Assembly (NCBI GenBank): GCA_020433455.1
Contig: JAGRCP010000046.1
Span: 1 to 39,735, forward strand
DNA from: Caldilineaceae bacterium
GTDB lineage: Bacteria > Chloroflexota > Anaerolineae > Caldilineales > Caldilineaceae
Direction of reading: 5' to 3'
DNA length: 39,735 bases
Both the position numbers and the translations under genes were made by a program. Each line of letters begins with the position of its first letter. Positions within the stretch are counted from its first letter, which is position 1. This document shows positions 21,796-38,864 of this stretch, piece by piece. The notes beneath the pieces were generated by a model that saw nothing but the letters and a program-made list of their open reading frames with translations, searched no databases and had not been told where the DNA came from.

Positions 21796-22032
21796 TTGGA
21801 TGTCATATCCGAAAAAGGAAGCAAGGAAATGGACGAAATGACCGTAAATGAAGAACGTAACCAGCTGCGCCGCCAGAACGGCATGATTGCCGGCGTATGC
21901 GGTGGACTAGGCGCTTTTTTTGGCATTAACCCCTTCTGGTTCCGCCTGCTCTTTGTGTTGCTGGCGCTGCCGGGCGCGTTGCCGGGCGTACTGATCTATT
22001 TTGTGCTCTGGCTGATTATTCCCCGCCGCTAG
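21796..22032 (+). CDS. PspC-domain membrane protein
   Basis: The sequence GVCGGLGAFFGINPFWFRLLFVLLAL...VLIYFVLWLIIP is a PspC domain. An alternative start at 21829 (MDEMTV) has an AGGAAG RBS. Confidence 0.75.
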   Translation: MDVISEKGSKEMDEMTVNEERNQLRRQNGMIAGVCGGLGAFFGINPFWFRLLFVLLALPGALPGVLIYFVLWLIIPRR

Positions 22033-22070
22033 CCGCGGCCTATCGCATTCCGATACCCTTTTTAACGCAA

Positions 22071-22103
22071 AGAGGCCGGGTTCCGTACGGAACCCGGCCT
22101 CTT
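22071..22103. terminator. Bidirectional hairpin (15-bp perfect stem, 3-nt loop) between convergent pspC-like and S41 peptidase genes
   Basis: AGAGGCCGGGTTCCG-TAC-CGGAACCCGGCCTCT is an exact inverted repeat. The flanking T-tracts are weak. Confidence 0.5.
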
Positions 22104-22140
22104 TGGCTGTCAGCCCATCCTCGCAATCGGCCGGAAAACG

Positions 22141-24795
22141 CTACTCTGCAAAGTCCGTATAGCGCACCTGGACCCAGCCCGGTATGACCAATGCATCGGC
22201 GGCGACCTGGACCCAGGCCCCGTCTTCGCTGACCTGAAGAACGCTCAGGATGGAGCCGTTGGCCAGATAGGCCAGGGCTTTGGCCTTTGTATCCGGCTCT
22301 TCATGCACGGTGAGGGGCCAGCCGTCCGTCTGTATGGAGGCCAAACCGATGGGTTCGGCCGTTGCTCCGGCGGTGTGGACATCCGTCTCGCCGCCCGCTC
22401 CTTCGCCCATCGACGCGTCTGCCACCGTCAGCATGAATTCACCGGCGCCGACATCGTCCAGGCTGCCCGCTTCCAACACCAGGGTCAGATCGTAGGGGAT
22501 TTCCAGTTCGGTAAAGCCCGCGTCCCGGATATCTTCACCCAGATCATCATTCGCCAAAAGCAGGTTGTCGTCCAAATCATACACGCGCAGAACCGTGTCC
22601 AGATCGTCGTTTGCGGCCGCGACGCGGATATTGATGACGTCTCCCTCCGCCACGTCCAGCGTATAGCGTACGCGCGTGTCCGCCGCAAGTTCGCCGCTTA
22701 CGCTGTCGCCGACCGCAACTGCGCCGCCGTCTGTAATCTCCGCGGTAGTCGCGCTGATCAGATAGTCGATTGCCGCGTCCAGAATGGGATCGCCCTCGCT
22801 GAAGAGGGTCTCCTCAGTCACGGGCACTTGTACGGTGGGCTGCACGCCTACGCCTTCAATGTGGATGTCGCCGTTCATGTCCACGGCGCGTCCCGCGGTG
22901 AAAGTGAAATATTCGCCGCCGGGCATGAGCACCTGATCAATGCTGCCGCCCAGACCGCCGGTAGGATATTGGCCCACAATCGCGGCACGATCGTTGAGGC
23001 TCATGTCGTAGGCGAAGAACTCGCACGCGCTGTTGCAATTGGGCCCCACCAACACGGCCACTTTGCCCCGATAGCGAAGGTCTTCCGCCGGCAGATAGAA
23101 GCGATCCACGGTGCGCTCGTCAAAGAAAAACTCGCCCAGGCTTTTGTCATAACGTCCGTTGTTGCCCAGTTCCAGGGGCTCATCGAAGAAATATGCGGCC
23201 ATCTGATCGGCCAGGAAACCGCTGCCGCCGCCGTTCTGGCGCATGTCGATGATGAGACCGGGCACGCCCGCCTGGTTGAGCGTACGGATCATGCGCTCCC
23301 ACAGCTGAATGCTCAGGAGGTCATTATCCGAGAAGCTGTAGATTTTGGCGTAGCCTAACCCCGCGTTGTCCAGCAGCAAGTATTCCACCGGCTGCTCAAA
23401 ACCGGTGAGACCGCTGTAAAAGGAGGAGAAGCTGAAGCTTTCGGTTTCGGGAACCGCGGCCAGGGTCGCGGTTACGGCGTCGTCCTCTCCCGGATTTTTA
23501 TACGTAATTTCGACTGTTGAATCCAGGGGGAAGCGAATGGCATAGCGAAGCTGCTGCAAGCGGCGCACGTGATCGGTGCTGAAGGGACCGGAATAGGCCA
23601 CGGCCGAGTCCACCGCCTCATCTATGGGCATGCCGTTGATGGCGATAATTTCCGCGCCCAGTTCGATGCCCTGCTCAGCGGCCGGACCATTGGGTAAGAT
23701 GAAGTTGGCAATAACCCGACCGTCATCCACGTCACGGATGGCCAGGCCCAGCCCGGCGGCCGTCGCGGACTGGAAATCTTCCATGATGTTGGGACCGCTC
23801 ACGTGGCCGTCGGGAATGCTCCAGGCGAAGTCGCGCAGCGCGCGGCGATAAGCCGTGAGGTCGTTGTTGGCCTCGGCCTCTTCAAAACGAGGAAGCAACT
23901 CGCTGCGCAAGGCCTCCCAGTCCATGCCCTTGTATTCGGTAAAGGCATATTCGTTGCTCAGCTGGTCAACTAGCGCGTTGAATGCCTCAGCGTAGCCCAG
24001 GTTCGAGTAATCGACCAGGGCGGAACCTTCGGGCTCAATGAGGTTCACCACCGGATTGCGCGAACGATCAAACGTAAAGGGATCGCTGTCCAGATTGACC
24101 AGCGTGTAGCCGGCGGGCACGGTCACGATGGGATCGTCGTCTGTAAAGAGGAGTCCATCCTCGCCAAAGCCGGCAGGAAAGCCCTGCTGATCATCGGGCG
24201 CGTAAATGAGGAACGTCCCGCCTACGATTTCCCGCCGGGTTTCCGCATCTTCGCTTACCCGGGTGGATGCATAGGCCGTGGACCAGCCGCCGCCGTAGAG
24301 GTCCCGCTCTTCCAGAAACGGATCGCCGAAGGTATTGGTCCAGTAGGCGGGCGCAAAGACCATGACGCCCGTCTCGTCCACGCCGTCGTGGTCCACGTCG
24401 CGCAGGCTGCCCTGGGGCTCAATCGGCAGGGCAATGGAATAGGCGAAGGGCGACGTGTAGAAGTCCGAGGTGATCTGCCCCAGGGTTTGGGATTCTACGG
24501 GCATAATGTAGCCTTCGTTGCGGTCTACAAAGCCGGTCTGATCTTCCAGGATGACCATGGGCGCGGCCACGCCCATGGTGAAGAAGGGCGAGGTATAGTT
24601 CACCTCGCCTGTGATGGTCACAGGACCGCCCTCGTCGTTGACGATTTCGGCAGGCGGCGCGTCCTCCTGGGCGTAGGCCGCCGGTGCCAGGAGCAGGCCG
24701 AAGGCCAACAGCAGAATCAACAAGTACGTTAATCGTCGCTCCGTGCTACTGGAATGCAGATACATATTGTTCTCCTTATAGAAAATGAAGATCAA
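22141..24795 (-). CDS. Secreted S41-family (C-terminal processing/tail-specific-like) peptidase with PDZ and C-terminal PPC domain
   Basis: A signal peptide is present. The S41 motifs are LIIDMRQNGGG and GPNCNSACEFFA. The PDZ domain contains GAEIIAINGMPIDEA. The C-terminal pre-peptidase PPC-like beta domain contains DTRVRYTLDVAEGDVINIRV. Confidence 0.7.
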   Translation of the reverse strand: MIFIFYKENNMYLHSSSTERRLTYLLILLLAFGLLLAPAAYAQEDAPPAEIVNDEGGPVTITGEVNYTSPFFTMGVAAPMVILEDQTGFVDRNEGYIMPVESQTLGQITSDFYTSPFAYSIALPIEPQGSLRDVDHDGVDETGVMVFAPAYWTNTFGDPFLEERDLYGGGWSTAYASTRVSEDAETRREIVGGTFLIYAPDDQQGFPAGFGEDGLLFTDDDPIVTVPAGYTLVNLDSDPFTFDRSRNPVVNLIEPEGSALVDYSNLGYAEAFNALVDQLSNEYAFTEYKGMDWEALRSELLPRFEEAEANNDLTAYRRALRDFAWSIPDGHVSGPNIMEDFQSATAAGLGLAIRDVDDGRVIANFILPNGPAAEQGIELGAEIIAINGMPIDEAVDSAVAYSGPFSTDHVRRLQQLRYAIRFPLDSTVEITYKNPGEDDAVTATLAAVPETESFSFSSFYSGLTGFEQPVEYLLLDNAGLGYAKIYSFSDNDLLSIQLWERMIRTLNQAGVPGLIIDMRQNGGGSGFLADQMAAYFFDEPLELGNNGRYDKSLGEFFFDERTVDRFYLPAEDLRYRGKVAVLVGPNCNSACEFFAYDMSLNDRAAIVGQYPTGGLGGSIDQVLMPGGEYFTFTAGRAVDMNGDIHIEGVGVQPTVQVPVTEETLFSEGDPILDAAIDYLISATTAEITDGGAVAVGDSVSGELAADTRVRYTLDVAEGDVINIRVAAANDDLDTVLRVYDLDDNLLLANDDLGEDIRDAGFTELEIPYDLTLVLEAGSLDDVGAGEFMLTVADASMGEGAGGETDVHTAGATAEPIGLASIQTDGWPLTVHEEPDTKAKALAYLANGSILSVLQVSEDGAWVQVAADALVIPGWVQVRYTDFAE

Positions 24796-32960: not shown

Positions 32961-33903
32961 TTAGCACGACTGTACTGGGTGTAAATGACGTTCAGGCGGA
33001 GAGACGGTGAGCCGGGAAGCCAGCCCATCAGTAGCATAGAGCCTTCCGTCCTGAGCCTGAAGTAGAGCATCCACGCCCCGTTGCGTCAGGAAAGTCAGTC
33101 CGGCGCGGCTGCCCAGAATCAGTGCGCTCTTGGCATAGATCTCAGCGATGGTCGCCCGGGGCGCCAGAACAGTAACGGCGAGCAAGTCGGTATCCGCGGG
33201 TTGACCCGTGCGCGGGTCGATAATATGGTGGCGCATCCGCCCATCCCGCTGCCAGCGACGCTTGATCACCGTTGACGTGGCGACCGCACTGTGGCTGACC
33301 GTCACTGTGGCCACGCCGGCATCCGGATTCAATGCGTCTTCTATCTCGATCCGCCAGCCGTCCGTTGTCCCCGGCGTACCATAGGCATAGATATCCCCGC
33401 CGGCATTGAGCAGAAACGGCCCTTCCTTGTAGAGCAAATCGGCGCAGCGATCCACCGTCCACCCTTTCCCGATTCCGCCCAGATCCAGGCGGAGCTCGCA
33501 GGGGCGGCGCACCCGACAACCGTTGCGATCAAGCACCACATCCTTCATGGTAAAGTGACTGTGCGATGAGCCGTCCGCGCGCCAGCCTGCTACGGTTGGC
33601 GTCGTCTGGTCGGCGGCTATCTCTTCAAAGCTACGGTCGTAGCCCGCCCTTTCCAGACTCGGCAGGATGGTCGGATCAAAGAGACCTTGCGTACTGGAAG
33701 CCGCCCACTGCGCGGCTTCCAGTACGGCGAACAACTCGTGGCTCACGTGTTGTTCAGGCCGTTCGCTGCGGTTGAGCAGACTTAACTCGCTGTCCGCACG
33801 GAACCGGGAAAGGCGTTGCTCGCTGCGGGCGAAGGTCGTCTCCACATACCGGGCCAGGCTGGGGCGGGTTGAATACAGCAGGACGGAGACGTTGGTGTTC
33901 ATG
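32961..33903 (-). CDS. apbE: FAD:protein FMN transferase ApbE
   Basis: The motifs RFRADSELSLLN, LGGIGKGWTVD, NAGGDIYAYG and HHIIDPRTGQP are ApbE signatures. The likely start is MNTNVSV at 33903. The Met/Thr-rich N-terminal extension of the listed ORF is an out-of-frame read of the upstream gene's repeat. Confidence 0.85.
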
Positions 33904-33987
33904 GCTCGAAATTGGCGTTCCGTCCAGGCTGCTCCGCCGGCGGGGCTTACAGCCGCAAATCCCGCAGCGGTTGGTGCGCCCGGCATG

Positions 33988-34674
33988 TTAGTCGTCATCG
34001 TGGTCGCCGCCGTGGTCGTCATCATGATCGCCGCCGTGATCATCTCCATGATCATCTCCATGATCATCACCGTGTTCGTCATCGTGTTCGCCTGACTCAT
34101 GCTCTTCATGGTCGTCATCATCGTCTTGGTGGGCGCTGTTGTTATTATTGTCGCTGCCGCCCCCGTTGCCGCCGGGACGAGCTGCTTGGGCAGCCTGTTG
34201 TGCCGCCAGATCGTTGTAGGCCGTCTGAAGTGAAGCCAGGGTCGTTTCCAACTGCCGGCGCAGTTGCGTTTCGTTGCCTTGAAGCGCCGTTACTTGCTGG
34301 GTGTAGGCCTGGGCGTCCTGCTCCAACGCAGCCTGGGCGGTTTGGAGTTGGGCCTGCAGATTGGCGACGGCGCTCTCCCGGGCGGTGATTGCCGCCTGAT
34401 CGGCCTCTACGGCAGACTGGGCCGCTTCTATCTTTGCGCTATACTCAGCGTCCATATTCGCCAGTACTTGCTGCAACTCTGCAACGTTGGCCTGGAGCGC
34501 CTTTTCCTGCGCAAGCTGGGGCGCTTCAGCCTCGGTAGACGTGACAACCGCAACATCTGTTGTCTCCGGCTGGGCCGCGCTGCGGGCACGGGCCTGACCG
34601 GTCAGCACAACAAGCGGGCCGGCGATTAAAATAGTCAGTAAAGCGGATAGTAAAAAGGCGTGTGAGCGCTGCAT
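33988..34674 (-). CDS. Signal-anchored coiled-coil protein with Gly/Asn linker and His/Asp-rich C-terminal tail (putative periplasmic metal-binding, Spy/CpxP/ZraP-like)
   Basis: An N-terminal TM/signal segment is followed by about 150 aa of Gln/Ala/Leu-rich heptad helix carrying a VTALQ LTxxQ-like motif. The C-terminus is HQDDDDDHEEHESGEHDDEHGDDHGDDHGDDHGGDHDDDHGGDHDDD. An AAAGGAGA RBS precedes the ATG. Confidence 0.55.
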   Translation of the reverse strand: MQRSHAFLLSALLTILIAGPLVVLTGQARARSAAQPETTDVAVVTSTEAEAPQLAQEKALQANVAELQQVLANMDAEYSAKIEAAQSAVEADQAAITARESAVANLQAQLQTAQAALEQDAQAYTQQVTALQGNETQLRRQLETTLASLQTAYNDLAAQQAAQAARPGGNGGGSDNNNNSAHQDDDDDHEEHESGEHDDEHGDDHGDDHGDDHGGDHDDDHGGDHDDD

Positions 34675-35536: not shown

Positions 35537-37135
35537 TTACCGGCTGGGGATAGGGAACGCTATGGTAAAGGCTGTGCCCTGCTTTTCGGTGCTGGAGACG
35601 CTGATACGGCCGCCGTTTTGCTCTACCAATGTTTTGACAATGGCGAGTCCGAGACCGGCCCCCGTACCCTCGCCCCTCTGCAGGCGGCTACGCGCCGGGT
35701 CAACGCGGTAGAAGTATTCGAAGATATGCGCCAAATCCTCGGGCGGAATTCCCGGGCCCGAGTCGCTGACGACAATTTTCGCAACGCCGGTCCGGCCCGC
35801 CGTCTGTTCGGTCTCGACGCGCAGGGTGACGCTCCCCCCGGGCGGGGTGTACTTGACCGCGTTATCCAGCAAATTGAGCACGACGGTTTCGACTTCATTG
35901 GCGCGTACGCTGAGCGGGGGCAGCAGTTCTTCAACGCTCACGGCAAAGGTGAGGCCGGCGTCCTTCATGCGCATGCGCATGGCGCGCGCCACGTCGAGAA
36001 GCATGGGGCGTATATCTGTCGGCGCTTCCGGCGGCGGCGGTTCGCGATTCTCGATCTTGCTCAGATCCAATAGGGTAGCAGCCAGCCGGCCCAGGCGATC
36101 CGCTTCGCTGTCAATCTCATGCAGATAGCGCTTGCTTAGCGCCGGGTCCTCGCCGTCCAGCGTCAGGAGGGCTTCACTGCGCAGCTTGATATTGGTCAGC
36201 GGCGTGCGCAGCTCATGGCTGGCATTGGCGATGAAGAGTCGTTGGCGGCGGATCATCTCCTGCAGCTCGCTCACCATGTAGTCGAAGGTCCGCGCCAGCG
36301 AGCCAATCTCATCGATTGAGTCAATATCTGCGCTCTGGGACAGATCGCCGGAAGCCACAGCCAATGCGGTTTCCTGCAGGCGTTGGATGGGGCGCACCAA
36401 ACGGCGCGCCAGGAAGATGCCCAGCACCGTGGCCAGGGCCAGCGCCGCCGCGCCGGCCAGTAAGAGGGTCAGCGCGAGCCCCCGAATGGGGGCAAGTACG
36501 TCGGACATGGGTTGAGCCATGCGCACAACGCCGAGCAGATTGTCGCCGATTTGCACCGGTGCAGCAGCAAACATATAGCGCACATCGCCCGCGGGATCGG
36601 TTCGAATATCGTGCTGTTCGACAAGCTGGGTTGCGGCCTGAAATTCGGGCGTGAGCAGTTGGTTGCCGATGGCCGCGGCCGAACCGCGGCTGTCTACGAT
36701 TGCATCGCCGCGCACGTCGAGGATTGTGACCCAGAGGCCGTCCTGTTGAGCGTAGCGGTTGGCCAAATGTTGCAGGCCATTTGTGCCCGGCGCGTTCGCC
36801 GTAAGGCCCTGGTCGCCCGCGTCGTCTTCTTCTCCGGCCGAATCTTCCCCGTCGTCGCTCTCTTTTCCGTCATGACTTTCTCGCCGCTCGTATTCTTCCA
36901 GCTCGCTGGAATATCCGCTGAGCGGATCTTCCAGGGCGTTCGCGGCCAACAAGGCTTTTACCTCCAGATCGTGTTCGGCCTGGTCGATCTGGACGCTGTA
37001 GACAGCGTTAATCACCAGCGCCATGAGCAGGCTCAGCACAATTAGAACGAGCAGGCCATAGCTGGCGATCAACCGAAACTGGAGACGCTGACGCCAGGGG
37101 ATGCGGGATGGGACGGGCAGAGCCTGTTTATTCAT
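35537..37135 (-). CDS. Sensor histidine kinase (two TM, acidic periplasmic sensor, HAMP, HisKA, HATPase_c)
   Basis: The H-box is HELRTPLTNI, the N-box is LLDNAVKYT, and the G-box is GTGAGLGLAIVKTLVEQNGG. The periplasmic loop contains ESHDGKESDDGEDSAGEEDDAGD. Confidence 0.88.
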   Translation of the reverse strand: MNKQALPVPSRIPWRQRLQFRLIASYGLLVLIVLSLLMALVINAVYSVQIDQAEHDLEVKALLAANALEDPLSGYSSELEEYERRESHDGKESDDGEDSAGEEDDAGDQGLTANAPGTNGLQHLANRYAQQDGLWVTILDVRGDAIVDSRGSAAAIGNQLLTPEFQAATQLVEQHDIRTDPAGDVRYMFAAAPVQIGDNLLGVVRMAQPMSDVLAPIRGLALTLLLAGAAALALATVLGIFLARRLVRPIQRLQETALAVASGDLSQSADIDSIDEIGSLARTFDYMVSELQEMIRRQRLFIANASHELRTPLTNIKLRSEALLTLDGEDPALSKRYLHEIDSEADRLGRLAATLLDLSKIENREPPPPEAPTDIRPMLLDVARAMRMRMKDAGLTFAVSVEELLPPLSVRANEVETVVLNLLDNAVKYTPPGGSVTLRVETEQTAGRTGVAKIVVSDSGPGIPPEDLAHIFEYFYRVDPARSRLQRGEGTGAGLGLAIVKTLVEQNGGRISVSSTEKQGTAFTIAFPIPSR

Positions 37136-37150
37136 GATGTCGTCTATTTG

Positions 37151-37894
37151 TTATTTGTGATCGGCGATCTCATCCGGGGCGACGAGACGATATCCCACGC
37201 CCCGGATCGTGAGCAGCAATTCCGGCTTGCTCGGATCCCGCTCCAGCTTTGCGCGCAGCCAGCGCATGTGTACATCCAGCGTACGCGGATCGCCGATCCA
37301 CTCCGCGCCCCACACCTGATCCACCAAATCGCCCCGCTTCACCGCGGCGCCCTGCGCATCGAGCAGCGCTATCAACAAGCTGTATTCCCGCTGCGAAAGA
37401 TGCACCGGTTCATCATCCACCGCCACCTGGTAGCGCGCCCGATTGACGCTTACGTGGCTCAACTGCACGACGGCGGATTCCTCCGGGGGGGCAGTCTCGG
37501 CCGGGGGCGTTTGCTGCGCGCTGTCCATGGCCACCCGCCGCAATACGGCGCGAATGCGGGCGATGAGTTCCCGTGCGCTGAAGGGCTTGGTGAGATAATC
37601 ATCCGCACCCAACTCCAGGCCCAGAATGCGGTCCATTTCTTCTCCCCGGGCAGTCAGCATGATGATGGGAACGCCACTCTCGGCGCGCAACTCGCGGCAG
37701 ACTTCCCAGCCCTGCTTTTTGGGCATCATGATATCCAGCAGGACAACGTCCGGGTCTATCGCCCGCGCCTGGGCCAGCGCATCTTCGCCGTCGACTGCGA
37801 CGTGTACGACAAAGCCTTCGCGGCGCAGTTGCAATGCCAGGGGATCGATGATCATCGGATCGTCATCCGCCAGCAAGATAGTCTCATCGGCCAT
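37151..37894 (-). CDS. OmpR/PhoB-family response regulator
   Basis: The receiver domain has ILLADDDP and the phospho-accepting Asp in VVLLDIMMPK. The C-terminal winged helix ends in GVGYRL. Confidence 0.9.
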   Translation of the reverse strand: MADETILLADDDPMIIDPLALQLRREGFVVHVAVDGEDALAQARAIDPDVVLLDIMMPKKQGWEVCRELRAESGVPIIMLTARGEEMDRILGLELGADDYLTKPFSARELIARIRAVLRRVAMDSAQQTPPAETAPPEESAVVQLSHVSVNRARYQVAVDDEPVHLSQREYSLLIALLDAQGAAVKRGDLVDQVWGAEWIGDPRTLDVHMRWLRAKLERDPSKPELLLTIRGVGYRLVAPDEIADHK

Positions 37895-38058
37895 ATATCA
37901 TCCGTTTCACTTCATTTCGTTGAACGTATCGGGCTCTTTTTGACCACGTCCATTCATTTGCGTCATGCCTGACGGGGATTGTTCCTGTCGCCCCAAGCTG
38001 CCCCGTATAGCATGCCCGAATCCTTTCGTCCTGTGGTCAAGTCCAGGCTAGGAGTCGG

Positions 38059-38108
38059 TTAAGCCTATGTTAAGAACGCTGGATCCAGCGTTCTTAACAT
38101 AGGCTTAA
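38059..38108. repeat. 50-bp perfect palindrome (25-bp arms, no spacer, centred on GGATCC)
   Basis: TTAAGCCTATGTTAAGAACGCTGGA|TCCAGCGTTCTTAACATAGGCTTAA was checked base by base. It lies in the divergent intergenic region between the response-regulator start and the downstream membrane-protein gene. Confidence 0.9.
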
Positions 38109-38351
38109 TGCCTTAATGAGCAATGTTTAACCACGCTCGTCACAAATGGGCGTATACTATCAACCATGCACGGCTTTCATCGGCTTTGGGATGTGCTGTG
38201 TGCAATGCTGTGTACGGCGCTGTGCAGGGATGACATCGTACAACTACCGGCATCTCTGCACAAGCCGCTTAAACTATACGCAGGCAGGCGTTTCCTGCAC
38301 CAAATTCCGGACAACCATGGGTTGTCAAGCTTTAGTTGGAGGATTGTTGAC

Positions 38352-38864
38352 GTGAAAAATTTGAAGCAATTGGTTACGCGAAATTACTACCCGTTGATGT
38401 ATCTCTTAATCGCCGGGAGCTTCCTGGGGCTCACGGCCGAGTTGGTGCTGACGGAGCATTGGGACGGCATTCAGCTCGTTGGTCTATTGGCCAGCATTAT
38501 TGGCCTTGTTCTGGCTGTCGTTGCTCTGTTCGCCGCGCCGCGTATGCGTCAGGCGCTGGCTGTGCTGTTTGTCGTCCTGAGTATCTCGGGAATTATCGGC
38601 ACGATTGAGCACAACGAAGCGCGGAGCGGCGAAGAGGCTTCCGCGCCGGTTATTGTCGCCGCAACAGCCGGCTCCAGCCGGGAACTTCCCGCCGCGCAGC
38701 AGCAGGAAGGCGAAGAGAATGAAGCGCGTGAAGGTCGCGGAGAACGGGGCGAAAGAGAGGGTGAAGCCGCACCGCCCCTCGCCCCCATGAGCCTGGCCGG
38801 TATGTCGATCATTGCCGCCGTGACCCTCATTGCAGACGACCGTAACCGCCAAAAGGCCGGATAA
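38352..38864 (+). CDS. Hypothetical membrane protein with Glu/Arg-rich cytoplasmic segment
   Basis: A GGAGGA RBS lies 8 nt upstream of the GTG at 38352. There are three or four TM helices and a charged EGEENEAREGRGERGEREGE segment. The listed ORF opens at 38166. Confidence 0.45.
   Translation: MKNLKQLVTRNYYPLMYLLIAGSFLGLTAELVLTEHWDGIQLVGLLASIIGLVLAVVALFAAPRMRQALAVLFVVLSISGIIGTIEHNEARSGEEASAPVIVAATAGSSRELPAAQQQEGEENEAREGRGERGEREGEAAPPLAPMSLAGMSIIAAVTLIADDRNRQKAG

Follow-up and report, generated by a model that had tools for sequence, protein, structure and literature searches.

Why does an exact palindrome of 50 bp stand between two divergently transcribed genes of an uncultured Caldilineaceae bacterium? 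The palindrome occupies positions 38059-38108 of contig JAGRCP010000046.1, which is the complete 39,735-nt stretch of DNA analysed here (the window) and belongs to a metagenome-assembled genome (MAG) from the Chloroflexota. It lies inside a 457-nt gap between a response-regulator (RR) gene of the OmpR/PhoB family, which forms an operon with a sensor histidine kinase (HK) gene, and the divergent gene for a 170-residue membrane protein. From their sequence, and by analogy with characterised systems, the arms of the palindrome very probably contain RR boxes. Sequence comparison makes it likely that the palindrome as a whole consists of an ordinary site for binding of the neighbouring RR, present twice and back to back, one copy for each divergent gene, and that its perfect symmetry is recent. 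The element would be an operator pair of the OmpR/PhoB type in a divergent promoter region, with the probable concerted evolution of its arms as a small twist.

Hexamer boxes and predicted promoters

Each arm is a direct repeat, CTTAAC-N5-CTTAAC, in which hexamers with an 11-bp period are separated by five nucleotides (N5) and read outward, toward the gene on their own side. The left box, CTTAAC-ATAGG-CTTAAC (38058-38074, minus strand), faces the RR gene, and the right box, CTTAAC-ATAGG-CTTAAT (38093-38109, plus strand), faces the membrane-protein gene; each is a putative site for one RR dimer. Between the inner hexamers lies an 18-bp spacer, AACGCTGGATCCAGCGTT (38075-38092), and the palindrome comprises the two strong box pairs together with this symmetric spacer. 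The sequence-only reading of the locus had pointed to repeats of TTAAG within the arms. These are present as TTAAG at 38059 and 38070 and as CTTAA at 38093 and 38104, and they are the key feature of the regulatory site.

Both boxes continue outward as arrays. On the minus strand, the left array runs through CTTAAC at 38074-38069, CTTAAC at 38063-38058, CCTAGC at 38052-38047 and CTTGAC at 38041-38036, with the last two (38036-38052; GCTAGG at 38047-38052 and GTCAAG at 38036-38041 as read on the plus strand) being weaker half-sites that remain in phase. The right array consists of CTTAAC at 38093, CTTAAT at 38104 and TTTAAC at 38126, the last of which opens a promoter-proximal half-site, TTTAACC (38126-38132, plus strand), at +33 and in phase with the right box. 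The hexamers at 38036, 38047, 38058 and 38069 on the minus strand and at 38093, 38104 and 38126 on the plus strand are all in 11-bp phase. Regulators of the OmpR/PhoB family bind direct hexamer repeats with a period of 10-11 bp, and in the PhoB and OmpR F1-F3/C1-C3 arrays such phased sites stand upstream of a promoter that lacks a -35 element and is activated by the phosphorylated regulator. The arrays described here resemble the pho box and these OmpR arrays in their direct repeats, their 10-11 bp period and the presence of several phased sites. They differ from the pho box in the half-site, which is of the TGTCA type for PhoB, and neither pho nor OmpR arrays form a perfect palindrome from a mirror pair.

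Beyond the right array, the hexamer TATACT (38153-38158, plus strand), which has no -35 hexamer, is the predicted -10 element of the membrane-protein gene. On the left, the -10-like hexamer CATGCT (38009-38014, minus strand), at +60 from the left box, is the weaker candidate for the RR-HK operon promoter, and an alternative, TATACG, adjoins it at 38004-38009. A consensus scan of 37800-38450 detected no complete sigma-70 consensus promoter in the palindrome region. Because a -10-like hexamer follows the last half-site by ~21 nt and a -35 hexamer is missing, both promoters are predicted to depend on an activator, with transcription starts likewise placed by prediction.

The palindrome itself is authentic. 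A repeat search bore out the exact 25+25 bp inverted repeat without a spacer that the sequence-only reading had described: the left arm, TTAAGCCTATGTTAAGAACGCTGGA (38059-38083), is followed after 0 nt by the right arm, TCCAGCGTTCTTAACATAGGCTTAA (38084-38108), the arms of 25 nt each are 100% complementary, and symmetry ends at the borders, with G at 38058 and T at 38109. By direct calculation, the chance expectation of a perfect 25+25 palindrome is 39,735 x 4^-25, or ~3.5e-11. Chimeric reads can yield perfect palindromes, and one Logan contig (L090, SRR6747775_193237) begins 5 nt before the palindrome centre, its position 1 being window position 38079, as might be expected if the palindrome were an inverted chimera or a similar artefact of assembly or amplification. 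However, the identical palindrome is spanned in four independent ENA assemblies (ERZ27309150, ERZ27309148, ERZ28655656 and ERZ28655600) and in the NCBI contig, making five; a second allele, again a perfect palindrome, is present in another NCBI MAG, that of the sister strain L089 (GCA_020634735.1); both flanks are collinear with orthologous loci; and the arms coincide with conserved boxes. The probability of an artefact is negligible in our estimation. Two sequence variants of the palindrome were found in all, via protein clusters, and all extra contigs carry the window allele. The right arm is present in Logan SRR6747775, where the palindrome apparently breaks the assembler's contigs.

A transcription terminator is ruled out, because the palindrome sits between two divergent gene starts and because a promoter/terminator scan of 37800-38450 detected no terminator-like site and no terminator-like T tract, in agreement with the missing T-tract noted earlier. 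A structured RNA was rejected as well, with an Rfam scan of the palindrome region returning only generic hairpin matches to miRNA models that are far below the gathering score (26.6 bits vs 79).

Conservation of the boxes across species

Orthologous loci (numbered with an L) were gathered by exact look-up of homologues of the membrane protein, and a further 43 loci (251,855 nt) from GTDB species representatives were found via the membrane protein alone, without use of a DNA motif. Counting a box at no more than one mismatch, and an RR as orthologous at 55% identity or above, we found boxes in 8/8 of the 43 loci that have an adjacent RR orthologue vs 3/35 of the others, and those three have their box upstream of the membrane gene. 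All but one of the 18 boxes in this set (17/18) are intergenic and directly upstream of the membrane gene, of the orthologous RR gene or of both. Divergent loci carry both box orientations. In three co-directional loci with the gene order RR, HK, membrane gene (L050, L052 and L058), the sole box faces the membrane gene from the gap between it and the HK gene, and the sequence upstream of the RR gene is different and looks constitutive.

The same boxes recur in the same place, at a fixed distance from a -10-like hexamer, in species down to ~40% protein identity. The phylogenetic footprint covers L002, L003 and L046 (76% amino acid identity), L007 (59%), L008 and L047 (47%), L048, L060 and L080; across these loci the hexamers and their 11-bp phase are kept and the rest changes. 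In the closest other species (L002, L003 and L046), the outer arms are imperfect, GGTTAAGCCTATGTTAAGA ... TCTTAACCCAGACTTAACC, with 32 nt between the inner hexamers. More distant loci keep the hexamers alone, as GTTAAG-N5-GTTAAG on the RR side and CTTAAC-N5-CTTAAC on the membrane-gene side, always with the 11-bp period. The consensus CTTAAC.....CTTAAC is found in 12/12 right arrays and, with hexamers and phase both kept, in 7/7 left arrays of divergent loci, N5 and the spacer being variable. A right box lies upstream of the membrane gene in 13 loci, including the three co-directional loci and three that have no adjacent RR gene, and the phase is invariant across 13 loci. The weaker left half-sites are identical in L046 and keep their phase in L007.

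The predicted promoter elements follow the same pattern. On the right side, 12 loci share the consensus CTTAAC.....CTTAAC................gtTTAACC. TAnnnT follows after 21 nt, or after 22 nt in L047; counted from the start of the box, this hexamer lies at +60 in 11 of the 12 loci and at +61 in L047. The -10-like hexamers at the left-hand mirror position are CATACT (L046), CATCCT (L047), TATAAT (L048) and GATAAC (L080), with GATAAT (L060) and TAAAAT (L007) displaced by one nucleotide.

The regulators beside the boxes also resemble one another. The recognition region GDPRTLDVHIRWLREKLE is nearly invariant in the nine RR orthologues that adjoin boxes, with two substitutions in L060 and two differing positions in the RR of the window, while RRs that adjoin box-less homologues of the membrane gene (L004, L067 and L079) differ throughout this region. 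We attempted to derive the specificity of the RR from its recognition helix and dropped the approach, as the helix is of the generic OmpR-family type. A natural control is provided by L004, where a paralogue or orthologue of the membrane gene (79-86% identity) stands beside a different two-component system: the boxes are absent there and the proximal 5′ untranslated region is conserved.

The boxes are most similar to the pmra-box of Salmonella, Klebsiella and Escherichia coli, the site of PmrA/BasR. This site consists of two XTTAAY hexamers 5 nt apart, is bound head-to-tail by a dimer of an RR from the OmpR/PhoB family and replaces the -35 element; it lies on the non-template strand, is oriented toward the gene and belongs to a promoter with a -10 element but without a -35 element (PMC10570014, PMC3973317). 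In the pbgP promoter, the hexamers are CTTAAT and CCTAAG (PMC10570014, PMC3973317), and PhoB positions are quoted in PMC10570014. Both arms here have this format of two XTTAAY hexamers with a 5-nt gap, as CTTAAC-ATAGG-CTTAA(C/T), in the same orientation. Unlike the pmra-box, however, the array here is longer, with half-sites at 0, +11 and +33, its proximal end lies ~21 nt from the -10 element and hence further upstream, two arrays stand back to back, the host belongs to the Chloroflexota, and binding is predicted from sequence. The RR is also no PmrA orthologue. Its closest solved relatives in a PDB search are RegX3 (E-value 7e-64, 219 bits) and MtrA, with BasR at an E-value of 7e-26 and 94.5 bits; against NCBIfam, all equivalog scores are below their cut-offs, the best being YycF, RpaB and MtrA, and BasR falls outside the 25 best families. 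The resemblance to the pmra-box is one of working principle, not of family membership.

Taking these comparisons together, we infer that this RR is the binder and that it acts by activation rather than repression. Once phosphorylated, the RR would bind as one dimer to each strong box, perhaps with further protomers on the weaker in-phase sites, and from there would activate two back-to-back promoters without a -35 element. The left array, reading toward the RR-HK operon, would provide positive autoregulation, and the right array, reading toward the gene for the 170-residue membrane protein, would control a conserved target. The two arrays would act independently, with no need for the palindrome as such. 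If correct, this model provides an uncharacterised two-component system of uncultured Caldilineaceae with a likely operator, CTTAAC-N5-CTTAAC, with autoregulation and with a conserved target, a small membrane protein whose family is unannotated and is found alongside two-component systems in several phyla.

The variable distance between the arrays bears on whether the palindrome is a single operator. Across the divergent loci the inter-array spacer measures 18, 18, 28, 29, 32, 37 and 82 nt, with no helical phasing, and its sequence is not conserved even in L046, the closest other species, or in L007, where the spacer has the same length of 18 nt as in the window and is not palindromic. The earlier proposal of a binding site for a dimeric regulator of both divergent units survives in part: a regulatory site serving both genes is retained, and one long palindromic operator for one dimer is not, given two direct-repeat boxes in opposite orientation with a gap of 18-82 nt among orthologues. 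A related possibility is that the central 18 bp or the whole 50 bp form an operator for a separate dimeric helix-turn-helix regulator, superimposed on the RR boxes. Perfect dyad symmetry between two divergent promoters would suit this idea, since that is the typical position of a repressor operator. However, the unconserved spacer and a distance of 18-82 nt between the inverted halves are a misfit with one dimer, the RR gene is the sole adjacent candidate for a regulator gene, and the symmetric double substitution described below is not predicted by protein binding alone. We consider such an additional operator very improbable.

Conservation of the locus also bears on a mobile origin. Like repetitive extragenic palindromes (REPs) and miniature inverted-repeat transposable elements (MITEs), the palindrome is extragenic and tens of bp long, and its long perfect inversion, its TTAA-containing ends and the Logan contig that breaks inside it would fit a REP, a MITE end pair or another mobile relic. 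Unlike those elements, it is single-copy within the sequences searched, is fixed in position relative to its flanking genes and has no dispersed relatives. The 25-nt arm has no other copy in the window at up to three mismatches (0/100 shuffles matched), no second copy is present in the extra 9 kb of L089, and a search of the JGI metagenomes with a gapped pattern of the architecture revealed no Caldilineaceae-like copy elsewhere. Position, orientation and distance to the -10-like hexamer are the same in the orthologous loci of many species. The exact 25-nt arm is likewise absent from GTDB representatives, JGI metagenomes and IMG/VR, although the GTDB set does not contain the source species and is hence a weak test of dispersal, and L089 carries a different base inside the 25-mer, which weakens the exact-arm scan. 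A mobile relic is extremely unlikely on this evidence, and the suggestion of a REP-like element or MITE relic in the sequence-only reading is not supported, with no other copies in the sequence searched and the position kept to ~40% protein identity; nothing points to a recombination site, which had also been suggested.

The gapped pattern gave 35 matches in the JGI metagenomes, mostly from unrelated organisms of lower G+C content, with fully complementary arms and no RR gene nearby. These were set aside as candidate relatives. Since the pattern accepts any long inverted repeat in which one arm carries the motif, the best reading is of unrelated long hairpins with the hexamers present by coincidence. 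Two of the 35 lie near an OmpR-type RR gene, the L027 pair ~190 nt upstream of one (33% identity) and the L014 pair ~1.5 kb from one, and neither was used as evidence. Among unrelated metagenome contigs, L029 contains a 66-bp perfect palindrome (28-93) that includes GTTAAG-N5-GTTAAG, and L013 (940-1001) and L015 (1817-1989) contain arrays in which units with CTTAA are repeated in tandem every 11 bp; in none of the three was an RR gene detected near the hexamers.

Symmetry of the arms

If the boxes need not mirror each other, their perfect symmetry in the window calls for an explanation of its own. Hexamers, phase and distance to the -10-like element are kept among relatives, and spacer, N5 and hairpin potential are not; as judged from the sequences, the conserved entity is therefore the phased hexamers with their distance to the -10-like element, and neither a stem-loop nor a fixed dyad. 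The N5 differs between lineages and is non-complementary between the arms in 4/7 divergent loci. A DNA hairpin formed by the window sequence has an energy of -25 kcal/mol (z = -13) and a perfect 23-bp stem, compared with -10.7 kcal/mol (z = -2.6) in L046, -2.5 (z = 0.1) in L007 and -4.7 (z = -0.8) in L048. By the same sequence comparison, exact symmetry over all 50 bp, N5 and 18-bp spacer included, is peculiar to this lineage.

The most informative variation comes from the sister strain L089, which is 98.64% identical to the window over 11,361 nt (141 mismatches). The strains differ at four positions in the 457-nt intergenic region, and two of these, 38080 T>C and 38087 A>G, are exact mirror positions in the spacer. 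The L089 sequence, AACGCCGGATCCGGCGTT, is again a perfect 50-bp palindrome, with both differences internal and P ~0.003 for the retained symmetry. When the observed number of single-nucleotide polymorphisms was placed at random in simulations, a mirror pair arose within the 50-nt palindrome with P ~0.004, before the requirement for complementary bases is added. The mirror changes are of the CCGG>CTGG type, and deamination of 5-methylcytosine at CCGG was considered as a cause of independent hits and found insufficient: 4/108 other CCGG sites differ likewise, ~1.5 times background, which makes two independent hotspot hits unlikely.

The mirror-paired difference suggests that the arms evolve in concert by template switching: an intramolecular switch of template would be expected to change both arms together. 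Comparison of the N5 adds to this picture. The N5 of the two arms is identical at 5/5 positions in the window, 5/5 in L080 and 4/5 in L047, with N5 sequences that are mutually unrelated. The right-arm N5 is CCAGA in L046, CCGTA in L007 and ATAGG in the window, and by outgroup comparison each of the three window-specific changes in it produces complementarity with the left arm. Template switching between the arms of inverted repeats is an established mutational mechanism that homogenises and extends them, and in quasipalindrome systems imperfect inverted repeats become perfect through clustered or paired changes (PMC7202029, PMC8604942, PMC13100816). The changes seen here resemble quasipalindrome template-switch mutation, as in the Ripley model, the E. 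coli assays of the Lovett laboratory and arm homogenisation in yeast, in being paired and in raising complementarity; unlike in those assays, the process is inferred here from natural variation in two strains and a few species. Most likely, the exact symmetry would have arisen as a side effect when replication switched templates between the arms of the same molecule, which would keep them identical, and we lean, with some reserve, toward this quasipalindrome correction as the cause of the palindrome's perfection.

Selection could also have maintained the symmetry. A perfect hairpin or cruciform might itself be the selected element, either as a cruciform that responds to supercoiling and thereby hides or uncovers the RR boxes or as a hairpin in RNA or single-stranded DNA. 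The perfect 23-bp stem and its energy would agree with such a role, the strain difference would be a compensatory pair that preserves pairing, and the arms are nearly identical in L080 and L047 as well. However, hairpin potential does not exceed background in L007 or L048 and is weak in L046, the spacer varies from 18 to 82 nt and the N5 does not pair in most divergent loci. The palindrome lies upstream of both predicted -10 elements and is probably not transcribed as a result. Its centre, CTGGATCCAG, is not AT-rich, which disfavours spontaneous extrusion of a cruciform, and mutational homogenisation accounts for the paired change without selection. With pairing unconserved in relatives and the site upstream of both predicted promoters, we rate selection for pairing below template switching, and consider it unlikely that the hairpin or cruciform is the selected element. 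The cruciform suggested by the sequence-only reading finds no support as a conserved function for the same reasons of hairpin potential.

A more specific version, in which selection keeps the palindrome as a cruciform-forming switch superimposed on the RR boxes, appears quite improbable. In such a switch, negative supercoiling would extrude the cruciform, and the four strong half-sites, now folded into hairpin arms, would no longer be part of the duplex. DNA topology would then be coupled to two-component output at both divergent promoters, and the compensatory strain difference would represent genuine covariation at the DNA level.

Several observations weigh against our explanation of the palindrome as a pair of RR sites homogenised by template switching. 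The link between the RR and the boxes rests on their co-occurrence and on the known binding mode of the RR family. Such a box is missing from 30 of the 43 homologous loci, the majority, and the association holds solely within the clade that has the orthologous RR. The -10 assignments are at the level of consensus, with the left CATGCT being weak. The paired polymorphism is a single a posteriori observation from one strain pair and fits selection for base pairing equally well. The right-arm N5 of the window, ATAGG, is also found in the distant locus L048, which makes the polarity of the N5 change uncertain and a preferred N5 possible. Finally, the arms of the L046 lineage stayed imperfect, and homogenisation is therefore not universal.

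If template switching is the cause, the mirror-paired strain difference is a natural example of how inverted transcription-factor sites may evolve in concert. The locus also illustrates that a striking palindrome that seems "too long to be an operator" can arise from ordinary parts. Current concepts are unchanged by this palindrome, which is an instructive yet ordinary case.

Flanking genes and other features

The RR gene (37151-37894, minus strand) encodes 247 residues with the Pfam domains Response_reg and Trans_reg_C, and the cognate HK gene (35537-37135, minus strand) encodes 532 residues with HAMP, HisKA and HATPase_c domains. The divergent membrane-protein gene (38352-38864, plus strand) is the predicted conserved target of the right box. 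The distances from the palindrome given by the sequence-only reading are correct, with the RR start codon (ATG 37894, minus strand) 165 nt away and the membrane-gene start codon (GTG 38352) 244 nt away. Start calls for the membrane gene differ between ENA (ATG 38166, 232 residues) and NCBI (GTG 38352, 170 residues). The GTG start is backed by the NCBI gene model (P0001), by 12 aligned homologues and by a GGAGG sequence 9 nt upstream; with the ENA start, the palindrome would seem just 58 nt from the start of the gene.

The 170-residue membrane protein has no Pfam match above the cut-off and no NCBIfam match. Invariant residues of its family are E30, H36, Q41, H87 and a PPLAP motif, and there is also an acidic Glu/Gly-rich loop. 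Members of the family adjoin two-component genes in Chloroflexota, Thermaceae, Truepera and Sericytochromatia MAGs (loci L046-L088), and the family may partner two-component systems in an accessory role or be one of their standard targets. The proximal 5′ leader of the gene (38262-38351) is conserved with L046 and also with L004, where everything further upstream is replaced. It contains two hairpins, GCAGG-N-CCTGC and ACAACC-ATG-GGTTGT (38313-38327), and an RNAalifold analysis of just four leader sequences, which has low power, gave three pairs with compensatory changes.

The MAG that holds the window also has a second copy of the membrane-protein gene (L004/L005/L006, P0015, KDD92_09055), which is 79-86% identical and has no CTTAAC boxes. 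Downstream of this copy, rather than upstream, are a different RR gene, with 34% identity in the DNA-binding domain, and an HK gene that is shorter. The copy is either a paralogous module or a sign that the bin mixes two populations.

Differences between L089 and the window are unevenly distributed, with 36 in 33500-34499 vs 1-6 per 500 nt in many bins. The dense stretch, 33500-34500, covers an ApbE-family gene and its neighbour. Right beside the palindrome, CTTAATG occurs twice, 8 nt apart (38104-38110 and 38112-38118), and 6/7 clustered positions in 38104-38118 differ from L046 at unchanged length, a clustered multi-nucleotide change that creates a repeat.

A second exact palindrome in the window, at 22068-22105, has arms of 19+19 nt and no spacer, CAAAGAGGCCGGGTTCCGT being followed directly by ACGGAACCCGGCCTCTTTG. 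It lies between convergent genes, a 67-residue PspC-domain open reading frame (21829-22032, plus strand) and an S41 peptidase/PDZ gene (22141-24795, minus strand). Its stem is G+C-rich with short A/T runs at both ends, and from its sequence it looks like a bidirectional terminator hairpin.

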